Shown here piece after piece: positions 1 through 50,782 of a stretch of 64,000 nt of DNA. Each line of letters starts with the position of its first letter. Position 1 is the stretch's first letter. The position numbers and the translations under genes are program-made. This DNA comes from an uncultured Thermodesulfobacteriota bacterium. GTDB lineage: Bacteria > Desulfobacterota > DSWW01. The DNA is taken from contig CAYZMM010000001.1 of the NCBI GenBank assembly GCA_964479535.1, positions 327,902 to 391,901 of the forward strand. Reading direction: 5' to 3'. Under the pieces are notes generated by a model. The model had not been told where the DNA came from and searched no databases. It saw nothing but the letters and a program-made list of their open reading frames with translations.

Positions 1-1106
1 TGTGCCGACTGGGGCAGAAAGTACACCGCGTTCCCGTGCGGAAGGGCGAGGACGGGCACCGGATTACATCGAGGATGATCGAAGAGATCGTCTCCTTTCG
101 ACCCGACTTCTTTCTCACCATCAATCATCTCGGCTTCGACGAGGAGGGAATCCTCGCCTCCTTCTTCCAGTCCATCGAAATGCCGGTGGGCTCCTGGTTC
201 GTGGACAGTCCGAACCTGATCGTGAAGGCCTTCCGCGAAAACGTATCGCCTTACGTCACGCTCTTCCTCTGGGACAAGGGATACGTATCCGACATGGAGG
301 CCCTCGGGTTCGAATCGGTCTGCTACCTTCCGCTGGCCACGGACGAGACCCTGTTCAAGCCTTTGGGTCGAAACGGGAAGAAGGGGCGGGTCCGTCCCTG
401 CGAGGTGGGCTTCGTGGGAAACTCCATGGTGGAGCCGACAGCGAAGTGGATGGCCCGGTTGCCTCTCTCCCTGCACCCTCTGGTGGAGGCTCTTGCGGAG
501 GAATGCCTCCGGCGCCGGACCTCTTTCGACGATCTCGTAAAGACCCGGAGGGAAGAGGACCGGCTTCGCATCGATGCTCTCGAGCCCGCCGGCAGGGCGG
601 ACCTCGAGGCGGCGGTACTCTGGAAGACCACGCAGCGCTATCGACTGCAGTGCGTCAGGACGCTCACACCCTTCGACCTGAAGGTCCACGGGGACAAGGG
701 ATGGAAAACCCTGTTGGATCGGCCCGCCGCGCTGTCTCCACCGATCGACTACTACAGGGAACTTCCCGGGTTCTACAATCAGTGCGCGATCAGCTTCAAC
801 GCAACGAATCTTCAGATGGGTGCGGCCGTCAATCAGCGGGTCTTCGACGTGCCCGCTTGCGGGGCCTTCCTCCTGACCGACCATCAGGAGGCGTTGTGTG
901 AGGCCTTCGAACCGGGGCGAGAAGTGGTGGTCTTCCAGGACGTGTCCGAGATACCGGACCTCATCCGACACTATCTGAAGCATCCGGCGGAGCGAAAGGC
1001 GATCGGTGAGAGAGGGAGGCAGCGGGTGCTGCAGGAGCACACCTACAGACACCGGTTGGAACAGATCATCGCACGAATGCGTTCCCGCTATCGTTCCGGC
1101 CCTTGA
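1..1106 (+). CDS. CgeB-like glycosyltransferase (DUF3880/Glyco_trans_1_2-like C-terminal domain), 5' truncated by window edge
   Basis: ORF 36..1106 is open upstream to the window start. C-terminal motifs FNATNLQMG...VFDVPACGAFLLTDHQE...GREVVVFQDVSEIPDLIRHYLKHPAERKAIGERGRQRVLQEHTYRHRLEQII, paralogous to the C-terminus of the 4858..6624 protein. Confidence 0.65.
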   Translation, partial: CRLGQKVHRVPVRKGEDGHRITSRMIEEIVSFRPDFFLTINHLGFDEEGILASFFQSIEMPVGSWFVDSPNLIVKAFRENVSPYVTLFLWDKGYVSDMEALGFESVCYLPLATDETLFKPLGRNGKKGRVRPCEVGFVGNSMVEPTAKWMARLPLSLHPLVEALAEECLRRRTSFDDLVKTRREEDRLRIDALEPAGRADLEAAVLWKTTQRYRLQCVRTLTPFDLKVHGDKGWKTLLDRPAALSPPIDYYRELPGFYNQCAISFNATNLQMGAAVNQRVFDVPACGAFLLTDHQEALCEAFEPGREVVVFQDVSEIPDLIRHYLKHPAERKAIGERGRQRVLQEHTYRHRLEQIIARMRSRYRSGP

Positions 1107-1566
1107 AGGGCCCGTCCGATGCCGGCGTATCCAGACTTTCCGGCTCCTCTTCCGCCATGGGGGGAGCGTGGTCTCGCCGGGGCGTCCGGATCCTTCTCCA
1201 GGCTGCATCCAGCTGCCGGATGTGGTGTTCCTGCTTCAGGTAGTCGAGGTAGCGGTCGAGCGCCTCCTGGCTTTCCTTGTCCATGTCCCGGAAGGACAGA
1301 CCGTAGCGGACAGGACCCTGCCCCGGCCGATCCGGTCCGACCCGCTCCCAGACGATCGTGGCCCTTGCGACGGAGGCGTCCTGTCTCGCGGGCACAGGCA
1401 ATTCGAGGGACAGGATCGATCCGACGCGGCCCAGCGGTCGGGTGCTCTCCACAAGGCAGCCGGAATGCGAGATGTCCAGAATGCGGTAGGGAGACGCCCC
1501 CGGAGGACCGGAAGGCGCCAGGGGGCACGCGGGCAGCCGTTCTTGTTGTCGCTTGTCGGTGTTCAC
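1066..1566 (-). CDS. PilZ-domain protein (c-di-GMP receptor-like), single domain
   Basis: RQQER (RxxxR) followed by DISHSGCLVE (DxSxxG) motif, ~166 aa. Overlaps 3' end of the upstream plus-strand gene by ~40 nt; start uncertain. Confidence 0.55.
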   Translation of the reverse strand: MNTDKRQQERLPACPLAPSGPPGASPYRILDISHSGCLVESTRPLGRVGSILSLELPVPARQDASVARATIVWERVGPDRPGQGPVRYGLSFRDMDKESQEALDRYLDYLKQEHHIRQLDAAWRRIRTPRRDHAPPMAEEEPESLDTPASDGPFKGRNDSGNAFVR

Positions 1567-1632
1567 GTATAGCCTTTCAGGATCTCGTCGGCCCAGGCCT
1601 TCCTAATGGTTCTCTTCGTCCCCCCGAGGGGT

Positions 1633-1647
1633 TCAAATCCTGTGCCA
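1633..1647 (-). promoter_or_regulatory. sigma-54-like promoter (TGGCAC-AGGAT-TTGA on minus strand; -12 GC replaced by GA) upstream of PilZ gene
   Basis: Revcomp reads TGGCACAGGATTTGA. Shares the AGGATTTG core with the 10579..10593 promoter. -12 element imperfect. Confidence 0.3.
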
Positions 1648-1704
1648 ATGAAAAGATTTCCACCGGCTCAAGAAAACTCGAATATATTTCTATTTGTATT
1701 TTAT

Positions 1705-1721
1705 ATGCTTATGTTAAGCAT
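1705..1721. promoter_or_regulatory. perfect 7-3-7 palindrome ATGCTTA-TGT-TAAGCAT in AT-rich intergenic region, putative operator
   Basis: Read directly. Lies in the unusually AT-rich 1567..1791 spacer between two minus-strand genes. Confidence 0.3.
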
Positions 1722-1791
1722 TTAAAGTACTGCTTGACCATGAAACCGGGCTCCGGAACCCCGAGGGGAGGACCGAAATGAAGGCACTTTC

Positions 1792-2853
1792 TTATCTTGG
1801 GGACTTTTTTTCCTCTGCGAGGGCCTCCCTGGCACGGGACCGCCATTCCTCGTACACGGCCGACCGAAGCGGGCGGCTCTCCAGACCGAGCCGCGCCGTG
1901 GTCTCCACGCCCGCCCAGTCCCCTTCCTTCGCTTGTTCCCGGCACAAGACCAGGAAGGGATCCACCCCGAGCCTCTCGGCCGCCCTTCGAGCGTCCTCTT
2001 CCCGCCCGCCCCACAGCCGGACGATCTCCTCGGCCGTCTCTTTCGCAGGGGTCTCGTACGTCTCCGAGTCCTCTTCGTAGAGGCTCAGCAGATACAAGCG
2101 AAGAACCGGGCTTTCCGGATAGGCTTCCACTTGTGCTTCACATTCCCGAACGGAACGCGCCAGAGACCGAACCCGCCCCAGGTATTCCCTTCTCACCTCC
2201 TCGACCGTTCCTTCGGCCCAGCGGGGCTTCAGAAAACGGACGATCTCCGCCGCCGCCCGGTTCACGGCCTCCGGGACTTCCTCGATCGTCTCCGCCGACT
2301 GGCTGGAGGTGAAGACGGCCCCCTGTCCAGGCCCCGGTTCCGTGATCTCGATCACCAGGCTCTTCCTCCTCCCGGTCGAGACCACCCTCCCGATCGCGTG
2401 GTAGTCTGCGGGAAAGCGTGCCCGTGCCTTCTGCAGCAAGCGCTTGCGCAGCCAGAAGAAGACCTCCGCATCCCGGGTCTCCCCTCCCTCTTCCCAGAGG
2501 CCCTTCACCAGCCATGGCCGGGGCTCCAGGGAATGGGTCCACTCGTACACGGTCTTCGCAGGGATCAACTCCAGCCATCTGTACCGGGAGAGTCCCGCCT
2601 CGAGAAGAGGAGCCAGGTCCCCGTCCAGGCTCGCCCTGGAGGTGGAGGTGTAGAAGGGCAGGATGCACATCCGGATCACATGGGGAGGACGCGGATGCAC
2701 CTCCGCAGGAGCGGCCTGGCCGCGAAGAGCAGGAACGATCACGCCCAGCGTCACCAGAAAGGCCCCAAGCTTCGCGTGCCGACTGCACATGCGCTTTCTC
2801 CTGCAGGCCATGGGATTTCCTCCATCGAAAACCCCTCCGCTGTTCGAAGACAC
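1792..2853 (-). CDS. hypothetical secreted protein (N-terminal signal peptide)
   Basis: 353-aa ORF. Hydrophobic N-terminus LGAFLVTLGVIVPALRGQAAPAE. No recognisable catalytic motifs. Confidence 0.45.
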   Translation of the reverse strand: MSSNSGGVFDGGNPMACRRKRMCSRHAKLGAFLVTLGVIVPALRGQAAPAEVHPRPPHVIRMCILPFYTSTSRASLDGDLAPLLEAGLSRYRWLELIPAKTVYEWTHSLEPRPWLVKGLWEEGGETRDAEVFFWLRKRLLQKARARFPADYHAIGRVVSTGRRKSLVIEITEPGPGQGAVFTSSQSAETIEEVPEAVNRAAAEIVRFLKPRWAEGTVEEVRREYLGRVRSLARSVRECEAQVEAYPESPVLRLYLLSLYEEDSETYETPAKETAEEIVRLWGGREEDARRAAERLGVDPFLVLCREQAKEGDWAGVETTARLGLESRPLRSAVYEEWRSRAREALAEEKKSPR

Positions 2854-2880
2854 CGAAGAGGACCTGCCGCCGACGGGCCG

Positions 2881-3285
2881 TCAGGCGGCCTGCGACATGC
2901 CTTTGAGCAACCCGTCCCAGCCGCCCAGCTTCTCGGAAAACTCGTACTCCAGGATGTCGGCCAGGTGCACCCAGTCCTCGCTTTCCTGGGCACCTACGGC
3001 CATCTTCAACAGGTCGGCCATCTCCCGGGACTCCTGGTCGAGGGCCTCGATGGAGCCCTGTTGTCCCTCCTCGGTGAAGGGCCTGCATCTGCGCACGTCC
3101 TCGAGGAAGGAGACGAGTATGGCGAAGTCGTCCAGCACCTTGGAGAGCAGTTCGTTCCCTTCCTGGATCTCTCCGGACCGCAGGTGATGGGCCGACTCCA
3201 GAAGGAAGCCGGACAGGGTCGTACAGGCCTCGGCCGCCTCCTGCAAGGTCTTCAGAATGGTGTCCCGCAGTTTCACGTCATCCAT
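2881..3285 (-). CDS. hypothetical small acidic helical protein (ORF 2881..3354; likely start at internal Met MDDVKL)
   Basis: ORF in the operon between the secreted protein and the GT9 gene. The longer start would overlap the GT9 stop by 77 nt. Confidence 0.4.
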   Translation of the reverse strand: MDDVKLRDTILKTLQEAAEACTTLSGFLLESAHHLRSGEIQEGNELLSKVLDDFAILVSFLEDVRRCRPFTEEGQQGSIEALDQESREMADLLKMAVGAQESEDWVHLADILEYEFSEKLGGWDGLLKGMSQAA

Positions 3286-4879
3286 GAGATGTACCCTCCT
3301 TTCGGTTCGGACCGAATCCGAAACGGTGATGGATTTGCTCTGCAACGCCGCCATAGAGAGAGGAAGACTCCCGGAGGAAGACGAAGGGGTCGCGTACCGG
3401 CAATGCCTCTCTCCGCAGCAGGAGATAGTGTATGACGGGCGAGAGGTCTTCCGCTTCCAATGCCAGCCGCTTCATCTCCTGTTCCGTAGTCCCCAGGTTG
3501 CTGCGCAGCACCTCCACCTGGTCGGTTGCGGAGCCCTTGCCGTTCCCGGCGGCTCCGAGCCGGCGCATCAGCCCCGACGACCTTCGCAAGAGGGCTTCGA
3601 GGCGTTTCCAGCCAGGATCGTCGTTCAGCGGCGACGCCTCCGGCAACTCCTCGGGCCGGGAACGGGTTTCGAGGAGGGCGTGCCAGAACCCCTTGTACAC
3701 CGCCAGTCGTCGGTCTTCGAGGGTCGGGCTCTCCGTCGCAAAGGAGAGGCAGCCCTCCTCGTCGAAGCAGGCCCGGTAGCAGGCGACATCCGCCGGAAGG
3801 CCCGCCGGCACACCCGTCTCGCCGTTCATGAGCCCCAGGATCGCCCTGTATACGAATTCCGCACGCACCCGCTCTTTGCAGACCGGCTTCATGCAGGAGA
3901 CGTGAAAGGAGCAGGGCGCACAGGCCGTTCGGGCCTGAAACACGAGATGGCCTCTGCCGTAAGGCCCGGTCTCGCGGAAGAAGACCGGCCCGACGGAGAC
4001 CACGATAACGGGCGTCCCCACGGCAGCCGCCACGTGCTGCGTACCGGTATCGTTCGTCACCAGGACCCTGCAGTGCTCGAGGACGCCGCCGAGTTCTCCC
4101 ACGCCCGTTCTTCCGGCGAGGCTGATGGAACCCGGGATCCGGCCGCCGATCCGCTCGCAAAGGGCCGCCTCTGCCGCAACCCCGAACAACAGAACCCGCG
4201 CGTTCAGGCCGTGTTGGAGCGCCTGCCCCAGCCGCACGAACTCCCTTTCGCTCCAGCACTTCTCCTTCTGGCTCGCAGACACCTGGAACCCGACCAGGAG
4301 ATCCCGCTGCGGGTTCACGCCGGAACCCGCCAACAGGGCCTGTGCGTTTTCACGATCCTCTGAAGACAGGGACATGCGAAGCCGGCGGGGCCCACGTACG
4401 TCCATGGCGCGCAGCCATATGTCGACCAGATGGAACGGGTTCGCTCTGCGGTTGGACATCATGGCCACGAGATAGGCGGACCAAGGATCCACGGCCTGAA
4501 AGGACCCGTCGTCACCCAGCCACATCCCACGGCAGGCCTTGTGCGCGATCAGCGAGCAGAAGGAAGCGGCGGATCGGGAAGGGGTCAGGTTGAAGACGAG
4601 GTCGTACGGATCCTCCCCGTTGACGGACCGGACGAGCTCGGCAAGGCGACGATGGCCCTGGATGAGACCCTCTTTTCCCGAAAGGGTCTGAAGAAGGGAG
4701 TGGACCGGAAAGGGCACGACCGCGTCCACGTCGATCCTTTTCGCCACATTCAGGAAGGATTCGTTCAGAAGCAGGGAGATCCTGGCCTCGGGACGCGCCT
4801 CCCGCAGGGCCTGAATCAGCGGCGTCATCTGAAGGATGTCCCCCATGCGCATGAGGTTCACCAGGAGGAGATTCGGCAC
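3278..4879 (-). CDS. glycosyltransferase family 9 (ADP-heptose:LPS heptosyltransferase-like) with ~180-aa C-terminal extension
   Basis: N-terminal LLLVNLMRMGDILQMTPLIQALRE and TNDTGTQHVAAAVGTPVIVVSVGP, the GT9 signature. Confidence 0.75.
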   Translation of the reverse strand: MPNLLLVNLMRMGDILQMTPLIQALREARPEARISLLLNESFLNVAKRIDVDAVVPFPVHSLLQTLSGKEGLIQGHRRLAELVRSVNGEDPYDLVFNLTPSRSAASFCSLIAHKACRGMWLGDDGSFQAVDPWSAYLVAMMSNRRANPFHLVDIWLRAMDVRGPRRLRMSLSSEDRENAQALLAGSGVNPQRDLLVGFQVSASQKEKCWSEREFVRLGQALQHGLNARVLLFGVAAEAALCERIGGRIPGSISLAGRTGVGELGGVLEHCRVLVTNDTGTQHVAAAVGTPVIVVSVGPVFFRETGPYGRGHLVFQARTACAPCSFHVSCMKPVCKERVRAEFVYRAILGLMNGETGVPAGLPADVACYRACFDEEGCLSFATESPTLEDRRLAVYKGFWHALLETRSRPEELPEASPLNDDPGWKRLEALLRRSSGLMRRLGAAGNGKGSATDQVEVLRSNLGTTEQEMKRLALEAEDLSPVIHYLLLRREALPVRDPFVFLRESSSLYGGVAEQIHHRFGFGPNRKEGTSHG

Positions 4880-6624
4880 CCTGCTTCCTCCTTGAAGGCC
4901 ATCAGCGTGAGGAACACTCGATCCTCCCAGCAGAGCTGTTTCTTTTCACCGATCAACCGGACCACCTCCTCCAGCTCCGGAAAGGGGCCTGCGGCGAAAG
5001 GCGCAAGATACTCCCGAAGCTCAGGGGGACACGATGCAGCCTCCCCTCGGCCCCGCCCCTTCTCGCGGCTCCTCCCCTGGAACCCGTGTTCGAACAGCGT
5101 GCCGAGCAGCTCCTTCATGCGGAGCAGGTAGGTGTGCTCCGCCAGGACGCGCCTTCGCCCCCTTTCTGCAAAGGCGAGCCGCTCCTCCTCGCGGTCGAGG
5201 AAATGGTCGATCTTCTCCCTTGCGTCCTTCAGCCCCTCGAAGACCACGACCTCCCGGTCGTCGAAGACCTCCGGAAGCATGCTTCTCTTGTCCACCAGCT
5301 GAAAGGCCCCGCAGGCGGCGATTTCGAAGGCTCTGGGATTCACGAAATCGCCGTGCGGATCGATCGCCTCGTGGTGCGAGGAGGAGTGGACGTTCAGGTT
5401 GATGCGCGAGGCGTTGAAGATCTTCACGGTCTCCTCGGTGCTCACTCTTCTGCCGCCCTCCTGCACCACCTCCGCCAGGACCGCCGGCGATCCCCCCCAC
5501 TCGTTCCCCCAGACCTTCATGCGGGGCGAGGCGAGCCGCGCCAGGACGTTCCGGCGGTTCCGGTAGCCGGCGCCCACGAAGGAGACAGCGCTTCCGTACC
5601 GCTCCCTCTCCTCCTGCGACAGGAAGCAGGGCCTGTGGACCCGCGGCTGCGCCGCCAGCGGCAGGCACCTCACCAGCGGTGCGCCTGCGGCCTGAACAGC
5701 GTCCTGTGCCTCCCGTTGAATCACGAAGAAGGCGTCCGTTCTTGATGCGATTCGCTTCCAGTAGGGCATCCGCAGGAAATCCTCGACGAACCAGTAGGCC
5801 ACGGTCGTGCCGCGGTCCCGCATCCTGCTGAGGCTCTCTTCACCCACCGGGGCCTGGGCAAGTATGAGTGCCACGTCCGGAGAGAAGACCTCGGCCCGTC
5901 GCTCGACGAGCCGGGAGAGGAGCGTCTCCATGGGCCGAAGGAGGTCGTTCCCCTGATCCCAGTCCTGCAGCTCGTTGTACCCGGGGTGGAAGGCGGCCAG
6001 GTCCACGAAGGAAACGGTGTGACCCAGTTCTTCGAGGCCGTCCCGGACGAAGCAGGCGATCGGGTAGGACCCTCCGTACACCGGACCGACCACCAGCACG
6101 CGCAGGGACTCGGTCCCGTGGGCACGGTAGGAAGAAAGGGCCTCGAGGGTCTCCAGAAACCTGCCGTGGATCTGTCTCGACGGGGGATGGACGTACCAGT
6201 CTTCCCGGTCCAGCGGGATCTGCTCCGCCACCTCCGCCGGGGCGGCCTGCACGAGCAGGCGGGTCCTGTCCAGCACGTGGCCGAGGTCCCGGTCCTCCAG
6301 TACGGCCCGAAGCAACGCCGCGTCCGGCTCCACGACGACCAGGTCCTCTGCCCGCCCGACGTCGAGAAGCGACTCGAGGTGGTAGCCGTCGCCGAAGCCG
6401 ATGACCCACGGATGGAGGGACGGGTGTCCTGCGGTACACCGGGCCGCCTCCCTGCACGGGTCGAACTCCGAGTGGAGCAGCCTGCCCCGGTAACGGTGCA
6501 CAGGCAATCCCGTCCGGCCCATCCGGAGTTCCACTTCGGTGGGGCGATCGAGGCTCTCGATCAGGCGGGCCGCCTCAGGCTGCCGCCGCCTCAACACGGA
6601 AAGGTTCTTTTCCAGTAAGCGCAT
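4858..6624 (-). CDS. two-domain protein: N-terminal region of unknown function (possibly Maf/DUF115-like) fused to CgeB-like glycosyltransferase C-terminal domain
   Basis: C-terminus FNASRINLNVHSS...VNPRAFEIAACGAFQLVDKRSMLPEVFDDREVVVFEGLKDAREKIDHFLDREEERLAFAERGRRRVLAEHTYLLRMKELL, homologous to the 1..1106 C-terminus. 588 aa. Confidence 0.7.
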   Translation of the reverse strand: MRLLEKNLSVLRRRQPEAARLIESLDRPTEVELRMGRTGLPVHRYRGRLLHSEFDPCREAARCTAGHPSLHPWVIGFGDGYHLESLLDVGRAEDLVVVEPDAALLRAVLEDRDLGHVLDRTRLLVQAAPAEVAEQIPLDREDWYVHPPSRQIHGRFLETLEALSSYRAHGTESLRVLVVGPVYGGSYPIACFVRDGLEELGHTVSFVDLAAFHPGYNELQDWDQGNDLLRPMETLLSRLVERRAEVFSPDVALILAQAPVGEESLSRMRDRGTTVAYWFVEDFLRMPYWKRIASRTDAFFVIQREAQDAVQAAGAPLVRCLPLAAQPRVHRPCFLSQEERERYGSAVSFVGAGYRNRRNVLARLASPRMKVWGNEWGGSPAVLAEVVQEGGRRVSTEETVKIFNASRINLNVHSSSHHEAIDPHGDFVNPRAFEIAACGAFQLVDKRSMLPEVFDDREVVVFEGLKDAREKIDHFLDREEERLAFAERGRRRVLAEHTYLLRMKELLGTLFEHGFQGRSREKGRGRGEAASCPPELREYLAPFAAGPFPELEEVVRLIGEKKQLCWEDRVFLTLMAFKEEAGCRISSW

Positions 6625-7980
6625 CCCTCATCTCTCTCAGCTCTGCCCAGCCTCTCTGAAGTACGTCCTGAAGACGAAGCCGGTCCGGAACGGGCAGGGT
6701 ATCCGGAACAGCGGACCCGAGGTTCTCGCCGACCTCCATGAGCAGGGACCGGTCCACCCGGTAGTGATCCAGGAAGAGGCGCAGGGTCCCGGCAGGGGAC
6801 GGCATGCTTCCGTCGGCCTTCCCAAGGTATTCGCCGGCGCATGCCCGATAGAGAAAGCCGATGATGTCCTCCCGGCCGGCCTCCTTTCTCGTCAGGGGCC
6901 GATACCAGAGCCACTCCTCGGAGAAATCGGAAGCGAAGAGCCGGATCCCGGAACAGGGTTCCACCGGCTCGTCCTTTAAAAGACGCACAACCGTATCCGG
7001 ACGGACCGCCCTACGGCAGTCCTGCCCGTCACAGGAGTCGTCCTCCCTGCAGGGACCGCAGGAAGGCGTCGCCTGCAGCACGACGTGACCGTGGCCGTAG
7101 GGGCCCGTCTCGAACAGGTAGGCAGGGCCGAAAAAGAGGGCCAGACAGGGAACCCCCCGTCGAGCGGCCAGGTGCAGGGTGCCCGTGTCGGCGGAAAGCA
7201 GCCGGTCGCAGGCACCCAGCATCTCCAGGAGATCCTCCAGGGACGTCTTGCCCACCAGGTCGTGCAGCCGGGGCGACCCGGTCAGACGTACGATCCGTTC
7301 GGCCAGGGGCCTCTCCCGTTCCTCGCCGAACAGGATCACCTCGCAACCGACCTCATCCCGGAGTCGGCGGATCACCTCGATGAAGCTCTCCACTCCCCAT
7401 GTCCGTTTTTCACATCGGGTCGCGACCTGGATACCGAGGACGCTCCTTTCGGAAAGAGGGGCTCGCTCCTTCGCGCCGAGAAGCGCTGAAGGGATCCTGC
7501 GACGCGAGTGAAGCCGAAAGAAGTCGACCAGATGAATACGGTTCCAGCGCCTGTCCGATTGGAGCAGCCGGGAGACCAGATCCACCCAGGGGTCGCCGAA
7601 GGAGCCGTCCAGACCGTCCCGGAATCCCTGCACATGCGCCTTTCCACGAATCGTTTCCGTCACGGTGACAGGCAGCCTACCAAAGTTGAGGTTGATGATC
7701 CGCTCGAATCCCCGGGTGGAAAGAGGCCGCAGTTCCTCGGCCAAGTCCGTCCACAGGCCCGTCCAGGGTCTGCCTTCCCGGAACCCCCGCAGTGTTCTTT
7801 CCAGGTCCAGGGTATAGACCGCCTCGAGGGACGGGACACGGGCCCGGAGGAACGTCTCGAGCCTCTTGTCGACGAGGACCGAGACCCGCTGCCTCTCCGC
7901 CTCCACGAGGTCGTCGAGCAGATACAGGCTCTGGGTGAGATCACCCATCCGTGCGAGCTGGGAAACGAGTACACCGGACA
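6575..7980 (-). CDS. glycosyltransferase family 9 (heptosyltransferase-like), second paralog
   Basis: ARLSGVLVSQLARMGDLTQSLYLL and SADTGTLHLAARRGVPCLALFFGPAYLFETGPYGHGHV. ORF track extends to 8476 but the first ~165 aa are low-complexity. Likely TTG start at 7980 preceded by GGGGGAGG. Confidence 0.65.
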
Positions 7981-8079
7981 ACCTTGCACCTCCCCCTGCT
8001 CCGCGCGTTCGGAGCGGGGATCCGCCTCGAGGATTTCGGCCCGGGGCCGCGCTCTTGTCTTCACCTGGGAAGGGGAACA

Positions 8080-8094
8080 GCAAGTTCTGTACCA
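8080..8094 (-). promoter_or_regulatory. sigma-54 promoter (revcomp TGGTACAGAACTTGC) upstream of GT9 paralog 2
   Basis: GG-N10-GC spacing matches the TGGCAC-N5-TTGC consensus. Extended motif GAACAGCAA-N3-CTGTACCA shared with 10571..10593. Confidence 0.5.
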
Positions 8095-8345
8095 CCCCCT
8101 TGCGCGGCTCGATCGCGGTGGGAGGCGGGAGGTGCGACGCGCTCCGCCGCGTCCGACTGCAGGCGTACGGAAGTCGGTCCACATAAAAACTATAGAATGG
8201 TTTCAAATGCTTAGAACGAGAGGCGGTGCCTGTGGACGGTCTGGGCGCGGCGCGGTCTGCAAGGAGGCGGATGGGCAGAGGCGCGGGGAAAACCGTCAAG
8301 GAATTGGGGGCGCACGCCAAGGAACGTGTGGAACCGGACAGACCG

Positions 8346-10532
8346 TCAACGGCAGGAAAGCCTGTGGAGTCCCGCCTTCGCTTCTTCGTGCTCGGGCAGG
8401 AAGAGCAGCACCCGCTCGAGCCTCTGCTTCGCCTCGTCGAACCGTTCCCGTTCCGCGAGAAGCCGGGACGAAGCAAGGAGCAGGTCCACGTTCGCAGGGT
8501 GTGTGGACAGGCACCGGTCGATGACCGCGGACGCCCTCTCCTTCTGCTCCGCCGTAGCGGCGAGTTCGACGAGTTTTCCGGTCACGCTCGGGTCCGCACC
8601 GTTTCGAAGGAGGAGGGCTTCGCATAGCCGGAAGGCCTCGGAACGATTTCCTCCGGCTTCCAGACGGTCCGCCTCGGCGTACAGGAGGTCCCGCCTCCTT
8701 ACTCCCCGCACCAGATATTGAAAGACGAAGAACTCTCTGAGATCCTCCGGGCCGAGATCGTGAACCGTGATGCGCCCCAGCCGCAGGTCGGTGGTCCCTT
8801 CTTCCGGGAGTTCGGGGCATCTCCGGTCCACGTTCGCGCGAAACTCTGCGACCTCGAGACCACAGGATGCGAGGAGCCGCTCGATCTCCGACCATGTGAA
8901 GAACCTCACGTGATCGCGGTCCAGGAGCCCCTCGTCCTGGTAGGTCCAGTGTCCCTCGGCCAGGTGCTGCACGACCCCCCAGAACCGGACGTTCGGAATG
9001 CTCATGACCACGGAGCCGCACGGCTTCAGCCAGTTCAGGTACCGCTCCAGGACGGCCTTCGGGTCGCGAAGGTGCTCCAGCACGTCCGCGAATACGAGTA
9101 CGTCGAAGGTTCCCCTGTCCACAGGGGGCACCCACTCCCGGGCGTCCGCCTGGAAGACGCGATCCAGCCACCGTTTCGCTTCCTCACAGGCGTCGGGCTG
9201 GATCTCGACGCCCCAGATTTCCCCTGCCCGGAGATCCGCCCGGCCCTTCAGAAGGCGACCCAAGTGTCCCCCGCCGCACCCGATGTCCAGGATCCGCTTC
9301 GACCCCTCCGGGATCAGCGCCTCCAGTTCGGCCCGCTCTTGCTTGTAGTAGTCGGGAAGCCGCACCTGCGTCGTGTCACGGCCTGCGTCCTCCGGACCCG
9401 TCGCAACCAAGTCCCGCGAAGCCGTCCTCTGAACGCCTCCTCTCCGACGGCCCCCCTTCGCCTCGAGGCCCTGGATCGCGTCCAGGATCTTCTCTGCCCG
9501 GTGCCGGTAGGTGTGCCCCGCCAGCACTTCCCGCCGGCCCGCCGCTGCGATGGCCTCCCTCTCCTCCGGGTGCGTTGCCGCTTCGAGCACGGCGTTCCAA
9601 CGCTCGATGAACCTCCCCATGGGGAAGCGGTCGAGCGCGCATTCCCTCGATCTTCGGCCGATCCGGGTTGCCAGGGGCCGATCCTGCAGGAGCGTCTCCA
9701 GCCTGGCACGGAGCTCTGTTTCGTCTTGGCCCAGGTAACCGTTCCCCCCGTCCTCGATGGGGGAGGTTCGGTTGGCGATGGATACGACGGGCATCCCCGT
9801 TGCCATCGCCTCGAGCATGGCCAGGTTGTACCCGTCTTCGTAGGGCTCGAGGGTGGTGTTCAGATACGTTCGGTGACGCCGAAGGAATCCTCGGTACGCA
9901 TCCCAGTCGCCGGGTATCGTTGCCTGGGGAAGAGCCGCATTCAGACCGAGGATCGTAGACGGAAGCCCCCTGGTCACCCTCTCCTGTACCGAATGTCCGA
10001 GCATGATGTCCCGCTCTTTCAGCCCGTTTCCGACCCGCAGGATGGAAGCCTCTTCGCCGGAATACCCGTGGTAATCTTCCGGATCGATGCCGGGGAGGAT
10101 GACCTCACCGTGAAAGCCCCAGTCCCGCATCTTCCCCGGTGAAATGAAGACAAGGGTCAGGTTTCTCATCTTCTCGAACAGCACGGCCACCTGCCCGAGG
10201 TACTCGTTTCTGTCCACCGGTGCCGTGTTGAGCGCGATTTCCGTGGACAGCTTGTTGTGGAAAACCAGAATCTTGGGCGTCTCCGCATCCCGGACGGACA
10301 ACAGGTCTTGCAGGTTGTGGGCGACAATCCGGTCGTACTTTCCGGCGCCGAGCCCTTCCCTTCCCTCCTCCTCGCTGATGAGCCGGCAGTTGGTGGGAAC
10401 GGGCCGGATGGCACGAATCCAGCCCCGGATGCCCGCCTTCTCTCTCTCCACCACTTCAAAGTGATGGCCGGTCTTGGCCATCATGTGGATATAGGACTCG
10501 TGCCAGTTGAATGTAAGAACCCTCAGCGGCAT
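8346..10532 (-). CDS. tri-domain protein: GT4/GT1-type glycosyltransferase + class I SAM-dependent methyltransferase + C-terminal TPR repeats
   Basis: TLEPYEDGYNLAMLEAMATGMPVVS (GT4 E-x7-E region); ILDIGCGGGHLG (MTase motif I); C-terminal TPR-like helical repeats. 728 aa. Confidence 0.75.
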   Translation of the reverse strand: MPLRVLTFNWHESYIHMMAKTGHHFEVVEREKAGIRGWIRAIRPVPTNCRLISEEEGREGLGAGKYDRIVAHNLQDLLSVRDAETPKILVFHNKLSTEIALNTAPVDRNEYLGQVAVLFEKMRNLTLVFISPGKMRDWGFHGEVILPGIDPEDYHGYSGEEASILRVGNGLKERDIMLGHSVQERVTRGLPSTILGLNAALPQATIPGDWDAYRGFLRRHRTYLNTTLEPYEDGYNLAMLEAMATGMPVVSIANRTSPIEDGGNGYLGQDETELRARLETLLQDRPLATRIGRRSRECALDRFPMGRFIERWNAVLEAATHPEEREAIAAAGRREVLAGHTYRHRAEKILDAIQGLEAKGGRRRGGVQRTASRDLVATGPEDAGRDTTQVRLPDYYKQERAELEALIPEGSKRILDIGCGGGHLGRLLKGRADLRAGEIWGVEIQPDACEEAKRWLDRVFQADAREWVPPVDRGTFDVLVFADVLEHLRDPKAVLERYLNWLKPCGSVVMSIPNVRFWGVVQHLAEGHWTYQDEGLLDRDHVRFFTWSEIERLLASCGLEVAEFRANVDRRCPELPEEGTTDLRLGRITVHDLGPEDLREFFVFQYLVRGVRRRDLLYAEADRLEAGGNRSEAFRLCEALLLRNGADPSVTGKLVELAATAEQKERASAVIDRCLSTHPANVDLLLASSRLLAERERFDEAKQRLERVLLFLPEHEEAKAGLHRLSCR

Positions 10533-10578
10533 CCGCCGGTCCTCCTCGAGGGGAGTACGAATGTTCCCGTGATGAACA

Positions 10579-10593
10579 GCAAATCCTGTACCA
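10579..10593 (-). promoter_or_regulatory. sigma-54 promoter (revcomp TGGTACAGGATTTGC) upstream of the GT-MTase-TPR gene
   Basis: In the 64-bp gap after the fliT-like gene. Same extended motif as 8072..8094. Confidence 0.5.
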
Positions 10594-10596
10594 GGA

Positions 10597-10983
10597 TCAG
10601 ACGTGCCTCGAAACGCGTCCGGGCGGGGGTGTACGGTCGGACAGGCGGCTGCGCAGGAGTTTCTTCAGGGAGCGGACGGTCTTCAATTTGTCATTCGCTT
10701 CAGCCAGTTCCACCAAGAGAAGACATCCCAGTTCCCTGTCGAGTCGGTTGATCTTCGCGAGGATGGCCCGGGTGGGCCTGTGCCCCTTGTCAAGGGATTG
10801 AATGCCCTCCAGCAGTTCTTGACGCTTCTGCTGCAACGCCTGCACCGCTTCCAGGTCGCCCCGGGCCAGGCATGCGCGTTGCTCTTCCGCGATCTCCAGG
10901 ACTCCGGTGAGTGTTTCGCCGGCCTCGTCGAACCCGGTGGGACGCTTCACGGCGAGACCCCGTTCTCCACAAGGCTGTCCCAA
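10597..10983 (-). CDS. flagellar export chaperone-like protein (FliT/FlgN-like coiled-coil)
   Basis: Position downstream of fliS as in B. subtilis fliD-fliS-fliT. LEIAEEQRACLARGDLEAVQALQQKRQELLEGIQSL heptad pattern. Confidence 0.4.
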   Translation of the reverse strand: MGQPCGERGLAVKRPTGFDEAGETLTGVLEIAEEQRACLARGDLEAVQALQQKRQELLEGIQSLDKGHRPTRAILAKINRLDRELGCLLLVELAEANDKLKTVRSLKKLLRSRLSDRTPPPGRVSRHV

Positions 10984-11327
10984 CCCTCTTTCAATTCGCG
11001 CAGGACCCGCAAGGCCCCGTCCATCATGTCCGGATCCCGCCGAAGGTTCGCCTGGGTGAACGTGTGGATCACGTATCGATACAGGATCTCCAAACGTTCG
11101 GCGATTTCTCCGCCCCGCTCCGTGTCAAGGGAGTCCAGAAGCTCGGTAACGATGGCGGTCGCCTTGCTCAGGTAGATCCCTTTCTCGGCGAAGTTGCCCT
11201 TCCTCATTTCCTCCTGCGCACGTGAAGCGTTCGCAATGCAACCCTCGTAGCACATCACCACGATGCGAACCCGGTCCGCCGTGGTCACGTTCGTCTTCTG
11301 ATACCCCCTTGCCACGTTCAACTGCAT
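10947..11327 (-). CDS. fliS: flagellar export chaperone FliS
   Basis: IVVMCYEGCIANASRA...KATAIVTELLDSLDTERGGEIAERLEILYRYV typical FliS. Confidence 0.85.
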   Translation of the reverse strand: MQLNVARGYQKTNVTTADRVRIVVMCYEGCIANASRAQEEMRKGNFAEKGIYLSKATAIVTELLDSLDTERGGEIAERLEILYRYVIHTFTQANLRRDPDMMDGALRVLRELKEGWDSLVENGVSP

Positions 11328-11354
11328 GGGTTCTCCTCCCTATCGATAATCCCA

Positions 11355-12719
11355 TCAGGAATACAAAGCAGACAGGTTGGTGGACTGAACGGAAGCAATC
11401 AGATTCTCCAGGGCCGCAAAACGAGCCCTCAGTCGTTCCTCCATGCGTTCCAGAGCCGCCTCCTCCGCTTCGATCTTCGCGTTCAGCACCCGGACCCGGT
11501 CCTGCAGCCCGTCCATCCGTATAGCGAGATCTCCGTCGCCGGATCGGGTGGCGACACTGGCGAGCTGATAGAACTGTTCGGCAACCCCTTCGGTCGCGTC
11601 GCCCTTCACGAACAGGTTCGTCACGCCTTCCAGGTCCGCGTCGAGGGCGTCCTGAAGCCCGGCCACATCCAGCGACAGCGTCCCGTCACGATTCGTCGAA
11701 ATTCCGATCTGAGAAAGTGCCCGCATATCCGACGGGAGCCCGTCCACGCTCGTGGAGACGATCCCGCTCATGCGGCGCTCGATCGATCGAACCGTGCCTT
11801 CCGCAAAGAGCGGGTCTGCCTCGTTCTCTTCCGTGTCGTAGTTGCTCCGGTCGGATATGAAGTTGATCACGTCGTTGTAGCTGTCCACCAGTGCCTGGAT
11901 GTCCTCCTGGATCGCGTCCCGGTCCTCGCTTACCTGGAGCGTCACGGTTGTTGCAGGATCCGCCTTGTGAAGCGAAACGCTGACACCGGGGATCAGGTCC
12001 GATACGGTGTTGCTCGACCGGGAAACGGTGAGACCGTCCAGGACGATTTCCGCATCCTGGGGGGTCTGGAGGTGCAGTTCCGAGGAAAAAGTGCTGTCGT
12101 TCACCGGAAAGCCCAGGTCTGTGCCGTCCTGGGTGACGATGATCTTGTTGTCTGCGCCGGTCTCGTCACTCGAGAGAACGAGCTGATAAGGGTCCGTGTC
12201 GGATCCGTCGTTGACGATCACGGCGTGAATCCCGGCATCCAAGTCGTTGATGGCATTCTTGAATTCCGTCAGCGTCGTCGTGGCGTCCACGGCAACCGTG
12301 TACTCCGTTCCGGTGTCACCCACCTTGAAGGTGAAGGAACCATTGCCCGAAGCGACCGTGGCATCCGCTGCTGAGAGCCCCACCCCCGCTTTGAGCTTGT
12401 GTGCCAGGGCAAGCTGGTTGACCGTCATGCTGTAATTGCCGGTGGTGGCCGAAGAGGAAACGTTTGTAGTGACGATCGTCTCGTCGCTCACGGTCGTTTC
12501 CTTGCCGCCGAAGCTTGTGGACAGGCGCAGCGCATCCGCGGCCGACTCGAGTCCTTCCAGCTTGCTCGAGAGATCGCTGAAGGCGGCGTTCTTCGCTTCG
12601 TAGGTGCTCTTCTGCCTTTCCAGACGATTGACGGAGATTCGCTCCACCTGGAGCAGTTGCTGGATCAGGTTCTCGTAGTCGATGCCCGACGATACCCCGG
12701 AAACGGTCAGGGTTGCCAT
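11355..12719 (-). CDS. fliD: flagellar filament cap protein FliD (HAP2)
   Basis: N-terminal GVSSGIDYENLIQQLLQVERISVNRLERQKSTYEAKNAAFSDLSSKL and C-terminal coiled-coil. 454 aa. Confidence 0.9.
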   Translation of the reverse strand: MATLTVSGVSSGIDYENLIQQLLQVERISVNRLERQKSTYEAKNAAFSDLSSKLEGLESAADALRLSTSFGGKETTVSDETIVTTNVSSSATTGNYSMTVNQLALAHKLKAGVGLSAADATVASGNGSFTFKVGDTGTEYTVAVDATTTLTEFKNAINDLDAGIHAVIVNDGSDTDPYQLVLSSDETGADNKIIVTQDGTDLGFPVNDSTFSSELHLQTPQDAEIVLDGLTVSRSSNTVSDLIPGVSVSLHKADPATTVTLQVSEDRDAIQEDIQALVDSYNDVINFISDRSNYDTEENEADPLFAEGTVRSIERRMSGIVSTSVDGLPSDMRALSQIGISTNRDGTLSLDVAGLQDALDADLEGVTNLFVKGDATEGVAEQFYQLASVATRSGDGDLAIRMDGLQDRVRVLNAKIEAEEAALERMEERLRARFAALENLIASVQSTNLSALYS

Positions 12720-12958
12720 GAACAGCTCCTCCTTTCCGCAGGATCAGGGGACCCGGTGATGCGCTGGCAAGAGAAGACCGATCCGGATGAGGATGGGCGT
12801 GAGCCCCTTCCCCACCGGATCGGCCGGTCATGCGAACGACTCGGAGAGCCGTCATGGAGTTCCCTATGGCTGATTCGCTGTCGCATCCGCATTCTGTATC
12901 CGCACCTTCGTTCGACCTTCACGCCTCAGGGAACACGAATGAGTGGTTGCGTTCTCCC

Positions 12959-13801: not shown

Positions 13802-13960
13802 GGTTCCATCCTCCTTGATGGTGTGTTGAGTTGCTTCCTTGCCTTGCTGCGTGGCGATCCGGCATCGGGCTCATAAACGGTCACGTACGATCCTCCTTTC
13901 CTGCCCAGGCTTTTGCCGGCATCACCCGGTCCGAACGAATACAAAGATCGTCATTCCTAT
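13802..13960 (-). promoter_or_regulatory. fliC 5' leader with multiple GGA motifs (putative CsrA binding sites, one overlapping the SD)
   Basis: Leader (minus strand) contains CAGGAAAGGAGGA, GCAAGGCAAGGAAGCA and CAAGGAGGATGG immediately 5' of ATG. csrA and fliW lie directly upstream. Confidence 0.5.
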
Positions 13961-13987
13961 CTATCGGTTCGTGACGGGAAAACTTTA
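13961..13987 (-). promoter_or_regulatory. sigma-28 (FliA) promoter of flagellin: TAAAGTTT-N11-ACCGATAG
   Basis: Revcomp of 13961..13987 = TAAAGTTTTCCCGTCACGAACCGATAG; matches TAAAGTTT-N11-GCCGATAA. Confidence 0.7.
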
Positions 13988-14016
13988 GGGGGAAAGCATT
14001 GAGAGCAAGAGGCTTT

Positions 14017-14660: not shown

Positions 14661-14692
14661 CGCCTTCCCTGGCCGACAGACGGTTTCTCTAC

Positions 14693-15583: not shown

Positions 15584-15596
15584 CGGAACCTCCCGG

Positions 15597-17638: not shown

Positions 17639-17641
17639 GAA

Positions 17642-17950
17642 TCAGTCCTCTCCCCGGCTCTTGGACGCCTCCGCGATCATGCTCTCCGCGACCTTTCGGC
17701 TGTCCGGCCGGTAGACGCCCGCATCGATCTCCCGCCTGAGCCGGTCCACGAGCTCGGCCCTCGCCTCGGGACCTTCCGAGGCTCGGAACCGCTTCTCCAT
17801 CTCGAGCAGCTTCTGAACGTCCTTGGAGAGCTGGATCCGGTCCGCGCGGGCTTCGCCCCCCTTCAGAGGCTCACGGCCCTCCTTGCGCGAAGGCTTCTCC
17901 AGGTTCTCGGGGAGCTTCACGTCGCTCTTGCCGATGTAGGGTATCTTCAT
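17642..17950 (-). CDS. flgM: anti-sigma-28 factor FlgM
   Basis: 102 aa. C-terminal LVDRLRREIDAGVYRPDSRKVAESMI matches the FlgM C-terminal region. Confidence 0.7.
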   Translation of the reverse strand: MKIPYIGKSDVKLPENLEKPSRKEGREPLKGGEARADRIQLSKDVQKLLEMEKRFRASEGPEARAELVDRLRREIDAGVYRPDSRKVAESMIAEASKSRGED

Positions 17951-18430: not shown

Positions 18431-18445
18431 CCCCTTTCCGGACAG

Positions 18446-20327: not shown

Positions 20328-20337
20328 GGCACACCTC

Positions 20338-24864: not shown

Positions 24865-25617
24865 TCATTCCGGCCGCGTCATCTCCTCCCTGCAGACCTT
24901 GCCCTTGAGTCGCATGAGCGCCTGTGCCTGAAGCTGGCAGACGCGGGATTCCCCGATACCCAGAACCTTCCCGATCTCCTTCAGGTTCAGCTCTTCGAAG
25001 TAATAGAGCTGGATGATTCTCGCCTCCCTTTCCGGAAGCGAATCGATGGCTTCTGCGAGCATGTCCCTTACTTCGTTGAATTCCGCAGCCAGGCCGGGGT
25101 CGGTTGACTTGCTGCGGGAGGACTTTCCCGCCATTTCCTCCACGGCCTTCGGCGAAAGGTGCAGGTCTTCCAGACTCAGAAAGGAAAGAGGCCGGGCCCG
25201 TGCGAGGAAGGCTTGGTACTCTTCTTCCGAGAGCCCGAGCTCGCTCCGTATTTCATCGTCATCAGGAGGCCTCCCGAGGCGCCTGCTCAATTGCTGTACG
25301 CTGTGGACGTACTTCTTGTAGCGATCCCGAAAGGAGCGCGGGGTCCAGTCCTGTTCCCGAATCGCATCCAGCATGGCGCCCCGGACCCGGATGGACGCGT
25401 AGGTTTGAAAGCGGTTCTTCCGGGAGGGGTCGAAGTCCCTCATCGCCTGCAGGAGACCGAGCGAACCGGCGCTGATGAGATCCTGAACCTCGAGATTGTA
25501 GGGCAAACGGACCGCGAGCCGGTAGGCGATCCATTTCACGAGGGGAAGGTGCTCCAGGATGGTCTCTTCCTCTTCCCTTTGGAGGTCCCGGAGAGGCTGC
25601 GCCGATGCTTTGCTCAT
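24865..25617 (-). CDS. fliA: RNA polymerase sigma-28 factor FliA
   Basis: LVKWIAYRLAVRLPYNLEVQDLISAGSLGLLQAMRDFDPSRKNRFQTYASIRVRGAML; C-terminal region 4 HTH. Confidence 0.9.
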   Translation of the reverse strand: MSKASAQPLRDLQREEEETILEHLPLVKWIAYRLAVRLPYNLEVQDLISAGSLGLLQAMRDFDPSRKNRFQTYASIRVRGAMLDAIREQDWTPRSFRDRYKKYVHSVQQLSRRLGRPPDDDEIRSELGLSEEEYQAFLARARPLSFLSLEDLHLSPKAVEEMAGKSSRSKSTDPGLAAEFNEVRDMLAEAIDSLPEREARIIQLYYFEELNLKEIGKVLGIGESRVCQLQAQALMRLKGKVCREEMTRPE

Positions 25618-46227: not shown

Positions 46228-47580
<1,353 letters not shown>

Positions 47581-48782
47581 CGTACGCTTCCTCCTGTTGA
47601 CAAGGCAGGGACATCACGAAACAGGACCCGGTCCCCACCCGGCTCTCGACTTCCACGATCCCCCCGTGACTCTCCACGATGTTGTTCACGATGGCGAGGC
47701 CGAGACCCGTCCCCTGGGACTTGGTCGTGAAAAAGGGATCGAAGATCCGGTCCAGTTTCTCCTCCGGAATGCCCTTCCCGTCGTCCTGAACGAACACCTT
47801 CATCACCGCAGAGCCGCGCCACACCCCGGCGGACTCCTCCTGCTTCACCGTCCCGATCCGGAGGCATCCTCCGGCGTCCATCCCCTCCACGGCATTCACG
47901 ATCAGATTCAGCAGGGCCTGCCGCAAAAGGATGCGGTCCCCCATGACGCTGCACCCCTGTTCGGCATAGTCCTGCTGTACGCGAACCCGGTGCTCCCGAA
48001 GCAACGGTCCCGTGAAGTCGAGGGCTTCCCCGACCAGCACCGGAATCTCCAGTGGTTCCCACCTCGGATCGATCCCCTTGGCGAAGTTGAGGAGGTTGGA
48101 AAGGGTCTGGGTAACCGTGCGGACCCCGGAAGCGAGCCTGCCTGCCAGGGCATACAGGGAAGGGTTTCCCTCCAGCTCCTCCAGGAGCATCGCTGCATTC
48201 AGTTCCATGCTTCCCAGGGGGTTCCGGATCTCGTGGGCGATCCTTGCACCCATCTCGCCCATGGAGCTGAGTCGTTTCTGTCTGTCGGCCAGGGCCTTCC
48301 ACCTTCCGATCTCGGTGATGTCCTCGATCAGGATCACCCATCCGCAGCCGCCTGTGCCGCATCCGTTCAAGGAAGAAACGGAGCAGCTGTAGAGTTTGCG
48401 CCCTTTTCGCCGTTCCAGGGACGCGCCCGACCGGAGGGGGATCTCCTGCAGGATCTCGAAGGCGCCGTGCCTTGCACCGAGGAGTTCCGTCTCCTTCTTC
48501 TCGAGGAACCCGCTCGCCTTCTGATTGGCAAGGCGAATCCGGCCCGCCTCGTCCGTGACCAGGATACCTACCGGCAGGTTCTGCAGAATCCCTTCCAGAA
48601 AGCCTTCCAGCCGTTCCTGCTCCTGCAGAGACACGACGAGCTTTGCATTCTTCTCGACCAGTTCCTGTTTCAGTGCTTCCGCCTGGTCCCTGAGCCTCTC
48701 GTAGGAACGCTCCATCTTCTTCGAAACGGACGTCAACATGTGAAAGGCCTGCTTGAGTTCCGCAAGCTCGAAGGACTGGGAA

Positions 48783-50642: not shown

Positions 50643-50767
50643 GGGCTCGGTTCCGCTCGCAGGGACCCTCCTGCGGCTCGAAAAGGGCTCTCTGGTTTTC
50701 ACGCCCCGCAGCAAACGGCCCGCTCCGGGACCGCGGCGCGACGCACTCTCGCCGACTCCAGGGTTTA

Positions 50768-50782
50768 GCAACTTCTGTGCCC
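50768..50782 (-). promoter_or_regulatory. sigma-54 promoter (revcomp GGGCACAGAAGTTGC) upstream of TPR-HK-RR operon
   Basis: GGCAC-N6-TTGC with consensus spacing, ~125 nt upstream of the TPR gene start. Confidence 0.5.

Follow-up and report, generated by a model that had tools for sequence, protein, structure and literature searches.

A candidate flagellar protein glycosylation island with a conserved Maf_N/CgeB-GT9 core in an uncultured Thermodesulfobacteriota bacterium

Gene content of the island

The DNA analyzed here (the window) is a stretch of 64,000 nucleotides (nt) from an uncultured Thermodesulfobacteriota bacterium (contig CAYZMM010000001.1, positions 327,902 to 391,901). Its left end carries a block of glycosyltransferase (GT) genes next to fliT, fliS, fliD, and the flagellin gene fliC (Table 1). 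The conserved core of this island consists of a CgeB-type GT4-like enzyme preceded by a Maf_N domain (Maf_N/CgeB), a GT9 enzyme with a four-cysteine (Cys4) knuckle and a helical C-terminal domain (GT9a), and a small acidic DUF8042-like protein. We consider it probable that the island is dedicated to the flagellum and glycosylates protein in the cytoplasm, the most likely acceptor being the short flagellin of 280 amino acids (aa), which would be O-glycosylated before export.

The window has approximately 62% G+C and raw lists of its open reading frames (ORFs) are noisy; the gene set for positions 1 to 13801 was taken from codon-position G+C and Pfam matches. All genes of this region lie on the minus strand, except the first one, CgeB-like 1. 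This gene is convergent with that of the PilZ-domain protein, and its frame is open from nt 3, the 5′ end being located beyond the left edge of the window. In operational terms, the region qualifies as a flagellin glycosylation island, as its GT genes and sugar modification genes are contiguous with the flagellin locus and conserved in relatives.

The first-pass annotation of this DNA, made from the letters alone, had placed two CgeB-like GTs (one with a Maf-like N terminus), two GT9 proteins, a fusion of a GT4-like enzyme with a methyltransferase and tetratricopeptide repeats (GT-MT-TPR), a secreted protein, and a small acidic protein at positions 1 to 10596, and had proposed a search of the ORFs with Pfam hidden Markov models (HMMs). 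This search confirmed the GT9, CgeB/DUF3880, Maf_N, and GT4-MT-TPR assignments and found the whole inventory in place; the PilZ gene had been overlooked. The two GT9 proteins are paralogs, as had been stated (32% identity over 357 aa), and the flagellin is indeed a short one. The island does adjoin fliT-fliS-fliD-fliC, although it was described as upstream of these genes, and the coding (minus) strand puts it downstream.

TABLE 1 Features of the island and of the adjoining flagellin locus
Feature	Position	Strand	Matches and location
CgeB-like glycosyltransferase 1	3..1106	+	DUF3880 3e-11, Glyco_trans_1_2 4e-36 (Pfam)
PilZ-domain protein	1066..1566	-	PF07238 4.5e-10
Sigma-54-type element TGGCACAGGATTTGA	1633..1647	-	Upstream of the PilZ gene
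Protein with signal-peptide-like N terminus	1792..2853	-	No Pfam match
Small acidic DUF8042-like protein, 134 aa, isoelectric point 4.36	2881..3285	-	
GT9a, 533 aa	3278..4879	-	PF01075 1e-21
Maf_N/CgeB fusion, 588 aa	4858..6624	-	Maf_flag10_N 24.4 bits, DUF3880, Glyco_trans_1_2 5e-35
GT9b, 468 aa	6575..7981	-	PF01075 1e-18
Sigma-54-type element TGGTACAGAACTTGC	8080..8094	-	~100 nt upstream of GT9b, within the 365-nt spacer
GT4-like + Methyltransf_23 + TPR fusion (GT-MT-TPR), 728 aa	8346..10532	-	Pfam
Sigma-54-type element TGGTACAGGATTTGC	10579..10593	-	45 nt upstream of the GT-MT-TPR start codon
fliT-like	10597..10983	-	Pfam
fliS	10947..11327	-	Pfam
fliD	11355..12719	-	Pfam
fliC, 280 aa	12959..13801	-	Pfam
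Sigma-28-type promoter TAAA-N15-ACCGATAG	13961..13987	-	~160 nt upstream of the fliC ATG

As read from the sequence, GT9b starts at the TTG at 7981, which is preceded by GGAGG, rather than at 8476. The genes that follow overlap: by 50 nt between GT9b and Maf_N/CgeB, by 22 nt between Maf_N/CgeB and GT9a, and by 8 nt between the stop of GT9a and the start of the acidic protein. Because of these overlaps, the four genes are probably translationally coupled. A 365-nt noncoding spacer (7982-8345) separates GT9b from the GT-MT-TPR gene. Within it are a sigma-54-type element and ccattctatagtttttatgtgg, a tract rich in A and T that may be a site for integration host factor or an enhancer.

None of the island enzymes has a predicted membrane-spanning segment. 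The protein encoded at 1792..2853 displays an N-terminal basic stretch followed by a hydrophobic segment, LGAFLVTLGVIVPALRGQA, and is probably exported; it has no match in Pfam or NCBIfam and is lineage specific, with orthologs only in the three closest relatives. The island continues past the left edge of the window, as seen in relative L004 (74% identical), where a converging operon (13695-21386) encodes a 564-aa CgeB, a 1129-aa GT4+CgeB+TPR protein, a 629-aa MT+GT4 protein, and an AsnB-like (asparagine-synthase-like) protein. The 564-aa CgeB is the full-length ortholog of CgeB-like 1, and its Maf_N match is subthreshold (22.5 bits). Among the window ORFs scanned there were no nucleotide-sugar synthesis genes; the earlier statement that pse and leg genes are missing therefore holds for the window.

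Conservation of the cassette across phyla

A scan of one genome per species gave at least 578 relatives of GT9a. Eighty loci were fetched with up to 10 kb on either side and compared by tblastn with the window proteins and by clustering of all ORFs. Full-length orthologs of GT9a number approximately 50 (51 to 100% identity), all of them metagenomic. In nearly every one of the 80 loci, the gene directly preceding GT9a is Maf_N/CgeB, and the pair is found in Nitrospira, Thermodesulfovibrionia, Nitrospinota, Hydrogenedentota, Zixibacteria, LCP-89, and deltaproteobacteria. This recurrence in at least six lineages makes the link to the flagellum much stronger than could be known from the window, on which the first-pass annotation was based. 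As a rule, the DUF8042-like gene comes right after GT9a; the Hydrogenedentota-type loci have it just ahead of the GT-MT-TPR gene.

Flagellar or motility genes (fliC/fliD/fliS, flgK/L, fliW-csrA, PilZ, or motAB) are present in 46 of the 60 loci that span at least 12 kb. We judge this association to be far beyond chance, an estimate of our own and not a computed statistic, since a random 20-kb stretch of a 3- to 4-Mb genome would seldom meet flagellar genes.

The arrangement of the cassette varies with the lineage. In the lineage of the window (L001, L004, and L006), the gene order is kept at 52 to 74% identity and reads fliW, fliC, fliD, fliS, fliT, GT-MT-TPR, GT9b, Maf_N/CgeB, GT9a, DUF8042, exported protein, and PilZ, with the second CgeB on the opposite strand. 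In Nitrospira, including a metagenome-assembled genome of N. defluvii (L066), the order is a giant GT-MT-GT2-GT2-TPR gene, GT9b, Maf_N/CgeB, GT9a, DUF8042-like, FliC, FlaG, FliD, FliS, an unnamed ORF, and PilZ. The Thermodesulfovibrionia type consists of CgeB, Maf_N/CgeB, GT9a, DUF8042-like, a response regulator, PilZ, MotA, and MotB.

Three Nitrospira loci (L053, 179-2348; L045, 2-1627; L066, 41-2607) also carry sugar-tailoring genes just upstream of the cassette. These genes encode an NAD-dependent epimerase/dehydratase, a DegT aminotransferase, a thiamine diphosphate-dependent enzyme, a transketolase C-terminal subunit, and a B12 radical S-adenosylmethionine (SAM) enzyme. Given that amino- and deoxy-sugar tailoring genes accompany the cassette in these relatives, the product is predicted to be a tailored oligosaccharide, probably, rather than the result of simple heptosylation.

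The surroundings of the cassette also bear on the identity of the acceptor. It is unlikely, in our view, that the cassette modifies another flagellar or motility protein instead of flagellin or besides it, such as the FliD cap, the hook-associated proteins, the exported protein, or a partner of the stator or of PilZ. Such an acceptor would fit the Thermodesulfovibrionia-type loci, as in L012, where no flagellin is found nearby and a response regulator, MotA, and MotB come after the cassette; it would also fit the Hydrogenedentota-type loci, where flgK-flgL-fliW-csrA lies upstream of the cassette, and the PilZ gene (cluster c2) that is found with the cassette in 30 related loci and frequently precedes motA-motB. 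In contrast, fliC is located within approximately 1 kb of the cassette in 29 loci, and the flagellins beside it (29 related loci and the window) are, across phyla, nearly all of one short type of 275 to 280 aa with only the D0 and D1 domains. Moreover, flagellin is by far the most commonly glycosylated flagellar protein. Conserved Ser/Thr positions are present in the cassette-linked flagellins and are not discriminating.

Domain architecture of the cassette proteins

Both GT9 proteins match the Pfam family Glyco_transf_9 (PF01075; cut-off, 22 bits), with 77.9 bits for GT9a and 67.9 bits for GT9b. GT9a is composed of a GT-B catalytic core (residues 1 to 316), the Cys4 knuckle, a β-hairpin (residues 365 to 381), and a helical bundle of approximately 130 residues (387 to 520), where the hairpin and the helical C-terminal domain add approximately 200 residues to the GT9 core. 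The AlphaFold2 (AF2) model of GT9a has a predicted local distance difference test (pLDDT) score of 87.6 and a predicted template modeling score of 0.88, with the pLDDT of the Cys4 loop below 50. Foldseek searches with this model retrieved 3tov (6e-17), WaaF (7e-14), and WaaC (2e-12). At ranks 10 and 16, after the bacterial GT9 proteins, the same search listed a plant subunit of the NAD(P)H dehydrogenase-photosystem I supercomplex (9grx_1 and 7wff_a), which evidently has a GT9-like fold.

Residues D14, K207, W209, D277, T278, G279, and H282 of GT9a are invariant in alignment A1 (motifs MGD, K-x-W, and NDTGxxH), and the MGD, K-x-W, and DTGxxH motifs align with those of 1psw and 3tov. The four cysteines of the knuckle (C320, C323, C329, and C334; CX2CX5CX4C) are likewise invariant and form a putative metal-binding site. 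The Cys4 motif is also present in GT9b and in 71 of the 107 GT9 ORFs of the related loci; the GT9b paralogs of Nitrospira are without it.

The 588-aa protein has a Maf_N-like domain at approximately residues 1 to 170, followed by a complete GT4-like GT-B enzyme (DUF3880 and Glyco_trans_1_2). Both PF13524 and DUF3880 score above their cut-offs in this protein, and the predicted GT-B fold is complete and confident, with PimA and WaaG among the structural matches. The MAF_flag10/MptE-like catalytic domain (PF01973) is absent from it, according to Pfam. A profile of the family (A2) matched the Maf structure 5mu5 with an E value of 0.004, and the resemblance of the N-terminal ~170 residues to Maf appears at the HMM level only. 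The Maf_N/CgeB family comprises at least 1525 proteins of approximately 590 aa, many of which have precomputed hits to PF20157 and PF13524.

In the GT-MT-TPR protein, the GT match (Glycos_transf_1/Glyco_trans_1_4), a GT4-like C-lobe, covers residues 202 to 351 and the TPR match residues 656 to 720. A class I SAM methyltransferase domain lies between them and matches PDB entry 3cc8 (2.7e-34). Orthologs of this protein range from 1031 to 1442 aa and contain extra GT domains.

The DUF8042-like family, recognized by the motif DW[VI]xLADLLEYEL, has jackhmmer matches in 53 related loci. The scan of the local library assigned it to no Pfam family, and only the L001 ortholog has a precomputed PF26154 hit. 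Many of its members (alignment A3; e.g., L064 12709-13320, L066 11715-12257, and L035 13702-14406) have an extra N-terminal segment of approximately 70 to 90 residues (MQI.L.GQ...V.VNG...), which is absent from the protein of the window. By hhalign, the C-terminal domain of GT9a, the DUF8042-like family, Maf_N, and the tail of CgeB were compared with FliS, FlaG, and FliT-like proteins and with one another; every probability stayed below 3%, and no chaperone relationship emerged.

Promoters and order of expression

The window was scanned for sigma-54-type elements (TGGCAC-N5-TTGC, one mismatch allowed). Eight elements were found where 2.9 were expected, a number reached by 1 of 100 shuffled sequences, and all eight lie on the coding strand. 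Three of them precede transcription units of the island (Table 1), four coincide with or shortly precede the annotated starts of flgF, fliL, flgB, and a TPR protein (48783..50771), and one, at 63787, falls inside an ORF. The first-pass annotation had proposed that the island and the flagellar genes share sigma-54 promoters. Elements of the form TGGYAC-N5-TTGC were found for three island units and several flagellar operons, and not for fliC, whose promoter is of the sigma-28 type. Also encoded in the window are fliA (24865..25617), flgM (17642..17950), and a sigma-54-dependent response regulator with its kinase (46228..48832).

Since the elements on the island are of the sigma-54 type and that of fliC is of the sigma-28 type, we infer from these motifs that the island enzymes would be made ahead of the sigma-28-dependent flagellin. 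Just upstream of fliC, csrA and fliW (14017-14660, minus strand) are parts of the FliW-CsrA-flagellin partner-switch circuit.

Comparison with known systems

The proteins of the cassette resemble several characterized systems in part. The Maf enzymes (Campylobacter, Aeromonas, and Magnetospirillum; PDB 5mu5; PF20157 + PF01973) have flagellin-adjacent genes and are reported to act in the cytoplasm, before chaperone binding and export (PMC4065374), and the island is alike in both gene position and predicted cytoplasmic action. The N-terminal module is common to Maf and the 588-aa protein, whereas a complete GT4-like GT-B domain replaces here the MAF_flag10/MptE-like catalytic domain of Maf; in addition, the window contains no nonulosonic acid pathway. 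In L026, L031, and L052, the cluster that holds the Maf_N/CgeB and GT9 genes also includes a genuine Maf gene with PF01973 and PF20157 (in L052 at 14296-16215; PF01973, 1.9e-43), loci that belong to some Syntrophales, Nitrospinota, and Thermodesulfobacteriota.

FlmG of Caulobacter crescentus, likened here by its domain description, resembles the GT-MT-TPR protein in combining TPR and GT-B domains in one protein. Its TPR domain binds flagellins (PMC7591256), and its substrates are short flagellins of approximately 275 aa, like the flagellins linked to the cassette. FlmG transfers pseudaminic acid. The GT-MT-TPR protein differs in that the TPR is C-terminal, so that the order is reversed, and in the SAM methyltransferase that separates its GT from its TPR.

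The bacterial autotransporter heptosyltransferases (BAHTs) TibC and AAH are GT-B enzymes related to heptosyltransferases that O-glycosylate proteins in the cytoplasm and have a Cys4 finger. In TibC, this metal (iron) finger is located near the end of the C-lobe (C339/C342/C358/C370) and serves assembly and recognition of the protein substrate, and a β-barrel spans residues 1 to 97 (PMC4358343). GT9a differs in the spacing of its cysteines (CX2CX5CX4C) and has no N-terminal β-barrel, with the first Rossmann strand at residue 3 of the AF2 model. A search of the PDB with profile A1 gave no TibC match at an E value of <10, and the Foldseek match between GT9a and TibC was weak (E value of 6e-6; TM score of 0.34 to 0.38). 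With no sequence match, no β-barrel, and a weak fold match, membership in the TibC/BAHT family was rejected, and TibC was kept as an analogy. The flagellin of enterotoxigenic Escherichia coli has been reported to be glycosylated, heptose or N-acetylglucosamine being the search modifications used (PMC5000012).

WaaC, WaaF, and WaaQ (CAZy GT9), together with 3tov of Veillonella, an uncharacterized GT9 protein, share PF01075 and the MGD, K-x-W, and DTGxxH motifs with GT9a and are its best structural matches. GT9a differs from the Waa enzymes by the extra Cys4 knuckle and the 200-residue C-terminal domain, and its gene context is flagellar instead of that of lipopolysaccharide (LPS). Against the NCBIfam LPS heptosyltransferase equivalogs, GT9a scored 81.7 (cut-off, 170.2), 69 (185.3), and 51.6 (134.6), and the best score of GT9b was 58.9 (134.6). 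By these profiles, GT9a and GT9b are members of GT9 and not orthologs of WaaC, WaaF, or WaaQ.

These likenesses raise the question of whether the island builds or modifies a cell envelope glycan that is coregulated with motility, such as an LPS-core variant, a glycolipid, or a polar or sheath-like polysaccharide. The characterized GT9 enzymes are LPS-core heptosyltransferases, and among annotated entries of the PDB and NCBIfam the top matches are WaaC, WaaF, and WaaQ; GT4-like enzymes often act on glycolipids, with PimA and WaaG being among the structural matches; the operon encodes an apparently exported protein; and nearby flagellar genes are missing in 14 of the 60 long loci. All the same, the scores lie far below the equivalog cut-offs (e.g., 81.7 versus 170), and no flippase, polymerase, export, or lipid-carrier GT genes were found in the window. 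The tight synteny with late flagellar genes across phyla, the Maf_N and TPR protein-docking modules in the cassette, and the genuine Maf gene beside it in some loci also argue for a protein acceptor, and we regard an envelope glycan as improbable.

CgeB, the spore crust maturation protein of Bacillus subtilis (PF13524), belongs to the same family of C-terminal GT-B half-domains, and its homologs are named "spore maturation protein CgeB." However, the host of the window is not a spore former, and the domain is fused here to Maf_N and DUF3880 in a flagellar context.

The islands for flagellin glycosylation in Pseudomonas, Geobacillus, Clostridium, and Enterobacteriaceae have the same layout, with variable GT, methyltransferase, and tailoring genes by fliC/fliD/fliS. 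Here, the core of GT9 and Maf_N/CgeB is conserved across phyla. By the tests that define each of them, this core falls outside Maf, the BAHTs, and the LPS heptosyltransferase equivalogs. A search of the open-access literature gave no account of a flagellar cassette built on GT9 or CgeB, which is absence of evidence only.

Proposed function of the island

Taken together, the data point to cytoplasmic, modular glycosylation of flagellin, which is made plausible by the precedents of FlmG (PMC7591256), TibC (PMC4358343), and Maf (PMC4065374). In the mechanism that we propose, the Maf_N, TPR, and GT9 C-terminal/Cys4 modules would dock the substrate, and the GT9 and GT4-like domains would add the sugars. 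The second GT9, the GT-MT-TPR fusion, and the further GTs past the window edge may extend and methylate the glycan, the methyltransferase acting as a tailoring enzyme, and the acidic DUF8042-like protein could serve as an adaptor or chaperone-like partner. The modified flagellin would then be exported by the flagellar type III apparatus. ADP-heptose may be the donor for one or both of the GT9 enzymes. For heptose as the sugar, membership in the GT9 family is the basis, and this makes it a tentative candidate, with another sugar more probable.

Several observations weigh against flagellin glycosylation as the function. No recognizable flagellar gene occurs within the up to 10 kb on either side in the 14 long loci mentioned above, and the Thermodesulfovibrionia cassette adjoins the response regulator-PilZ-motAB genes, not flagellin. 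The Maf_N match (PF20157) of the 588-aa protein is marginal (24.4 bits for a cut-off of 23.5), and fold searches with this protein did not recover Maf. The resemblance of the GT9a knuckle to the finger of TibC is an analogy only, since the spacing differs and no sequence homology was found. Neither the window nor the annotated neighbors showed ADP-heptose genes. Finally, to our knowledge, the characterized canonical GT9 enzymes all act on the cores of LPS or lipooligosaccharide.

That the GT-like proteins are noncatalytic scaffolds or regulators of flagellar assembly is very unlikely: although their catalysis is a prediction and the cassette carries extra noncatalytic domains and a small acidic partner, the GT9 catalytic and donor motifs (N-terminal MGD, K-x-W, and NDTGxxH) are invariant, the predicted GT-B folds are complete and confident, and methyltransferase and sugar-tailoring genes accompany the cassette.

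A further-reaching version of flagellin glycosylation, which we consider possible and yet rather doubtful, is that GT9a and GT9b are the first members of a new class of protein O-glycosyltransferases that act in the cytoplasm and descend from the LPS heptosyltransferases. They would (hepto)glycosylate flagellin directly, with recognition by the Cys4 knuckle and the helical domain being convergent with the iron finger of the BAHTs, and would form an obligate trio with Maf_N-GT4 and the DUF8042-like protein. This would represent a third, so far undescribed route beside Maf and FlmG/Fgt, employed by Nitrospira and several further environmental phyla.

Flagellin glycosylation itself is well known and has been studied almost only in pathogens, mostly with nonulosonic acids. 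The enzyme composition of the island and its conservation across phyla, including Nitrospira, are what would surprise a specialist. If the proposed function is correct, a conserved cassette that combines GT9 with a Maf_N-GT4 fusion and a small acidic protein would be new enzymology, and canonical GT9 enzymes would gain a first function beyond LPS. The widespread "spore maturation protein CgeB" annotations in non-spore-formers would likewise be linked to a function, and the flagella of hard-to-study Nitrospira (a nitrifier), Nitrospinota, and Thermodesulfovibrionia would become open to testing. With a core of three genes and a short flagellin, the system can feasibly be reconstituted in E. coli, a host that produces ADP-heptose natively.

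Other features of the window

Rfam and tRNA scans of the window found nothing, and intrinsic terminators and sigma-70 promoters in positions 1 to 14700 showed no excess over shuffled sequence. From 10.6 to approximately 46 kb, the window holds a complete flagellar cluster of approximately 36 kb identified with Pfam, whose genes include flgL/K/N/M/I/A/G/F, fliA, flhG/F/A/B, fliR/P/M/L, flgE, fliK, fliI, and fliG. Inside this cluster, the gene for a protein with a peptidoglycan-binding SPOR domain (39179-40144, minus strand) is flanked by the regions of fliK and fliI. Four ORFs with good codon bias have no Pfam match at 1e-5 (23145-24113, 24187-24588, 19588-20334, and 52183-53880, all on the minus strand); that at 19588-20334 sits where flgH would be expected.

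The region at 53625-60684 is unrelated to the flagellar cluster and constitutes an anaerobic dehydratase/reductase system, with a 1525-aa BcrAD/BadFG-type activase fused to DUF2229 (plus strand) adjoining two genes for the D component of 2-hydroxyglutaryl-CoA dehydratase (minus strand). At 60781-62292 (minus strand), a 503-aa ORF combines MerR and TetR_N DNA-binding domains and, if real, would encode an unusual regulator with two helix-turn-helix domains.

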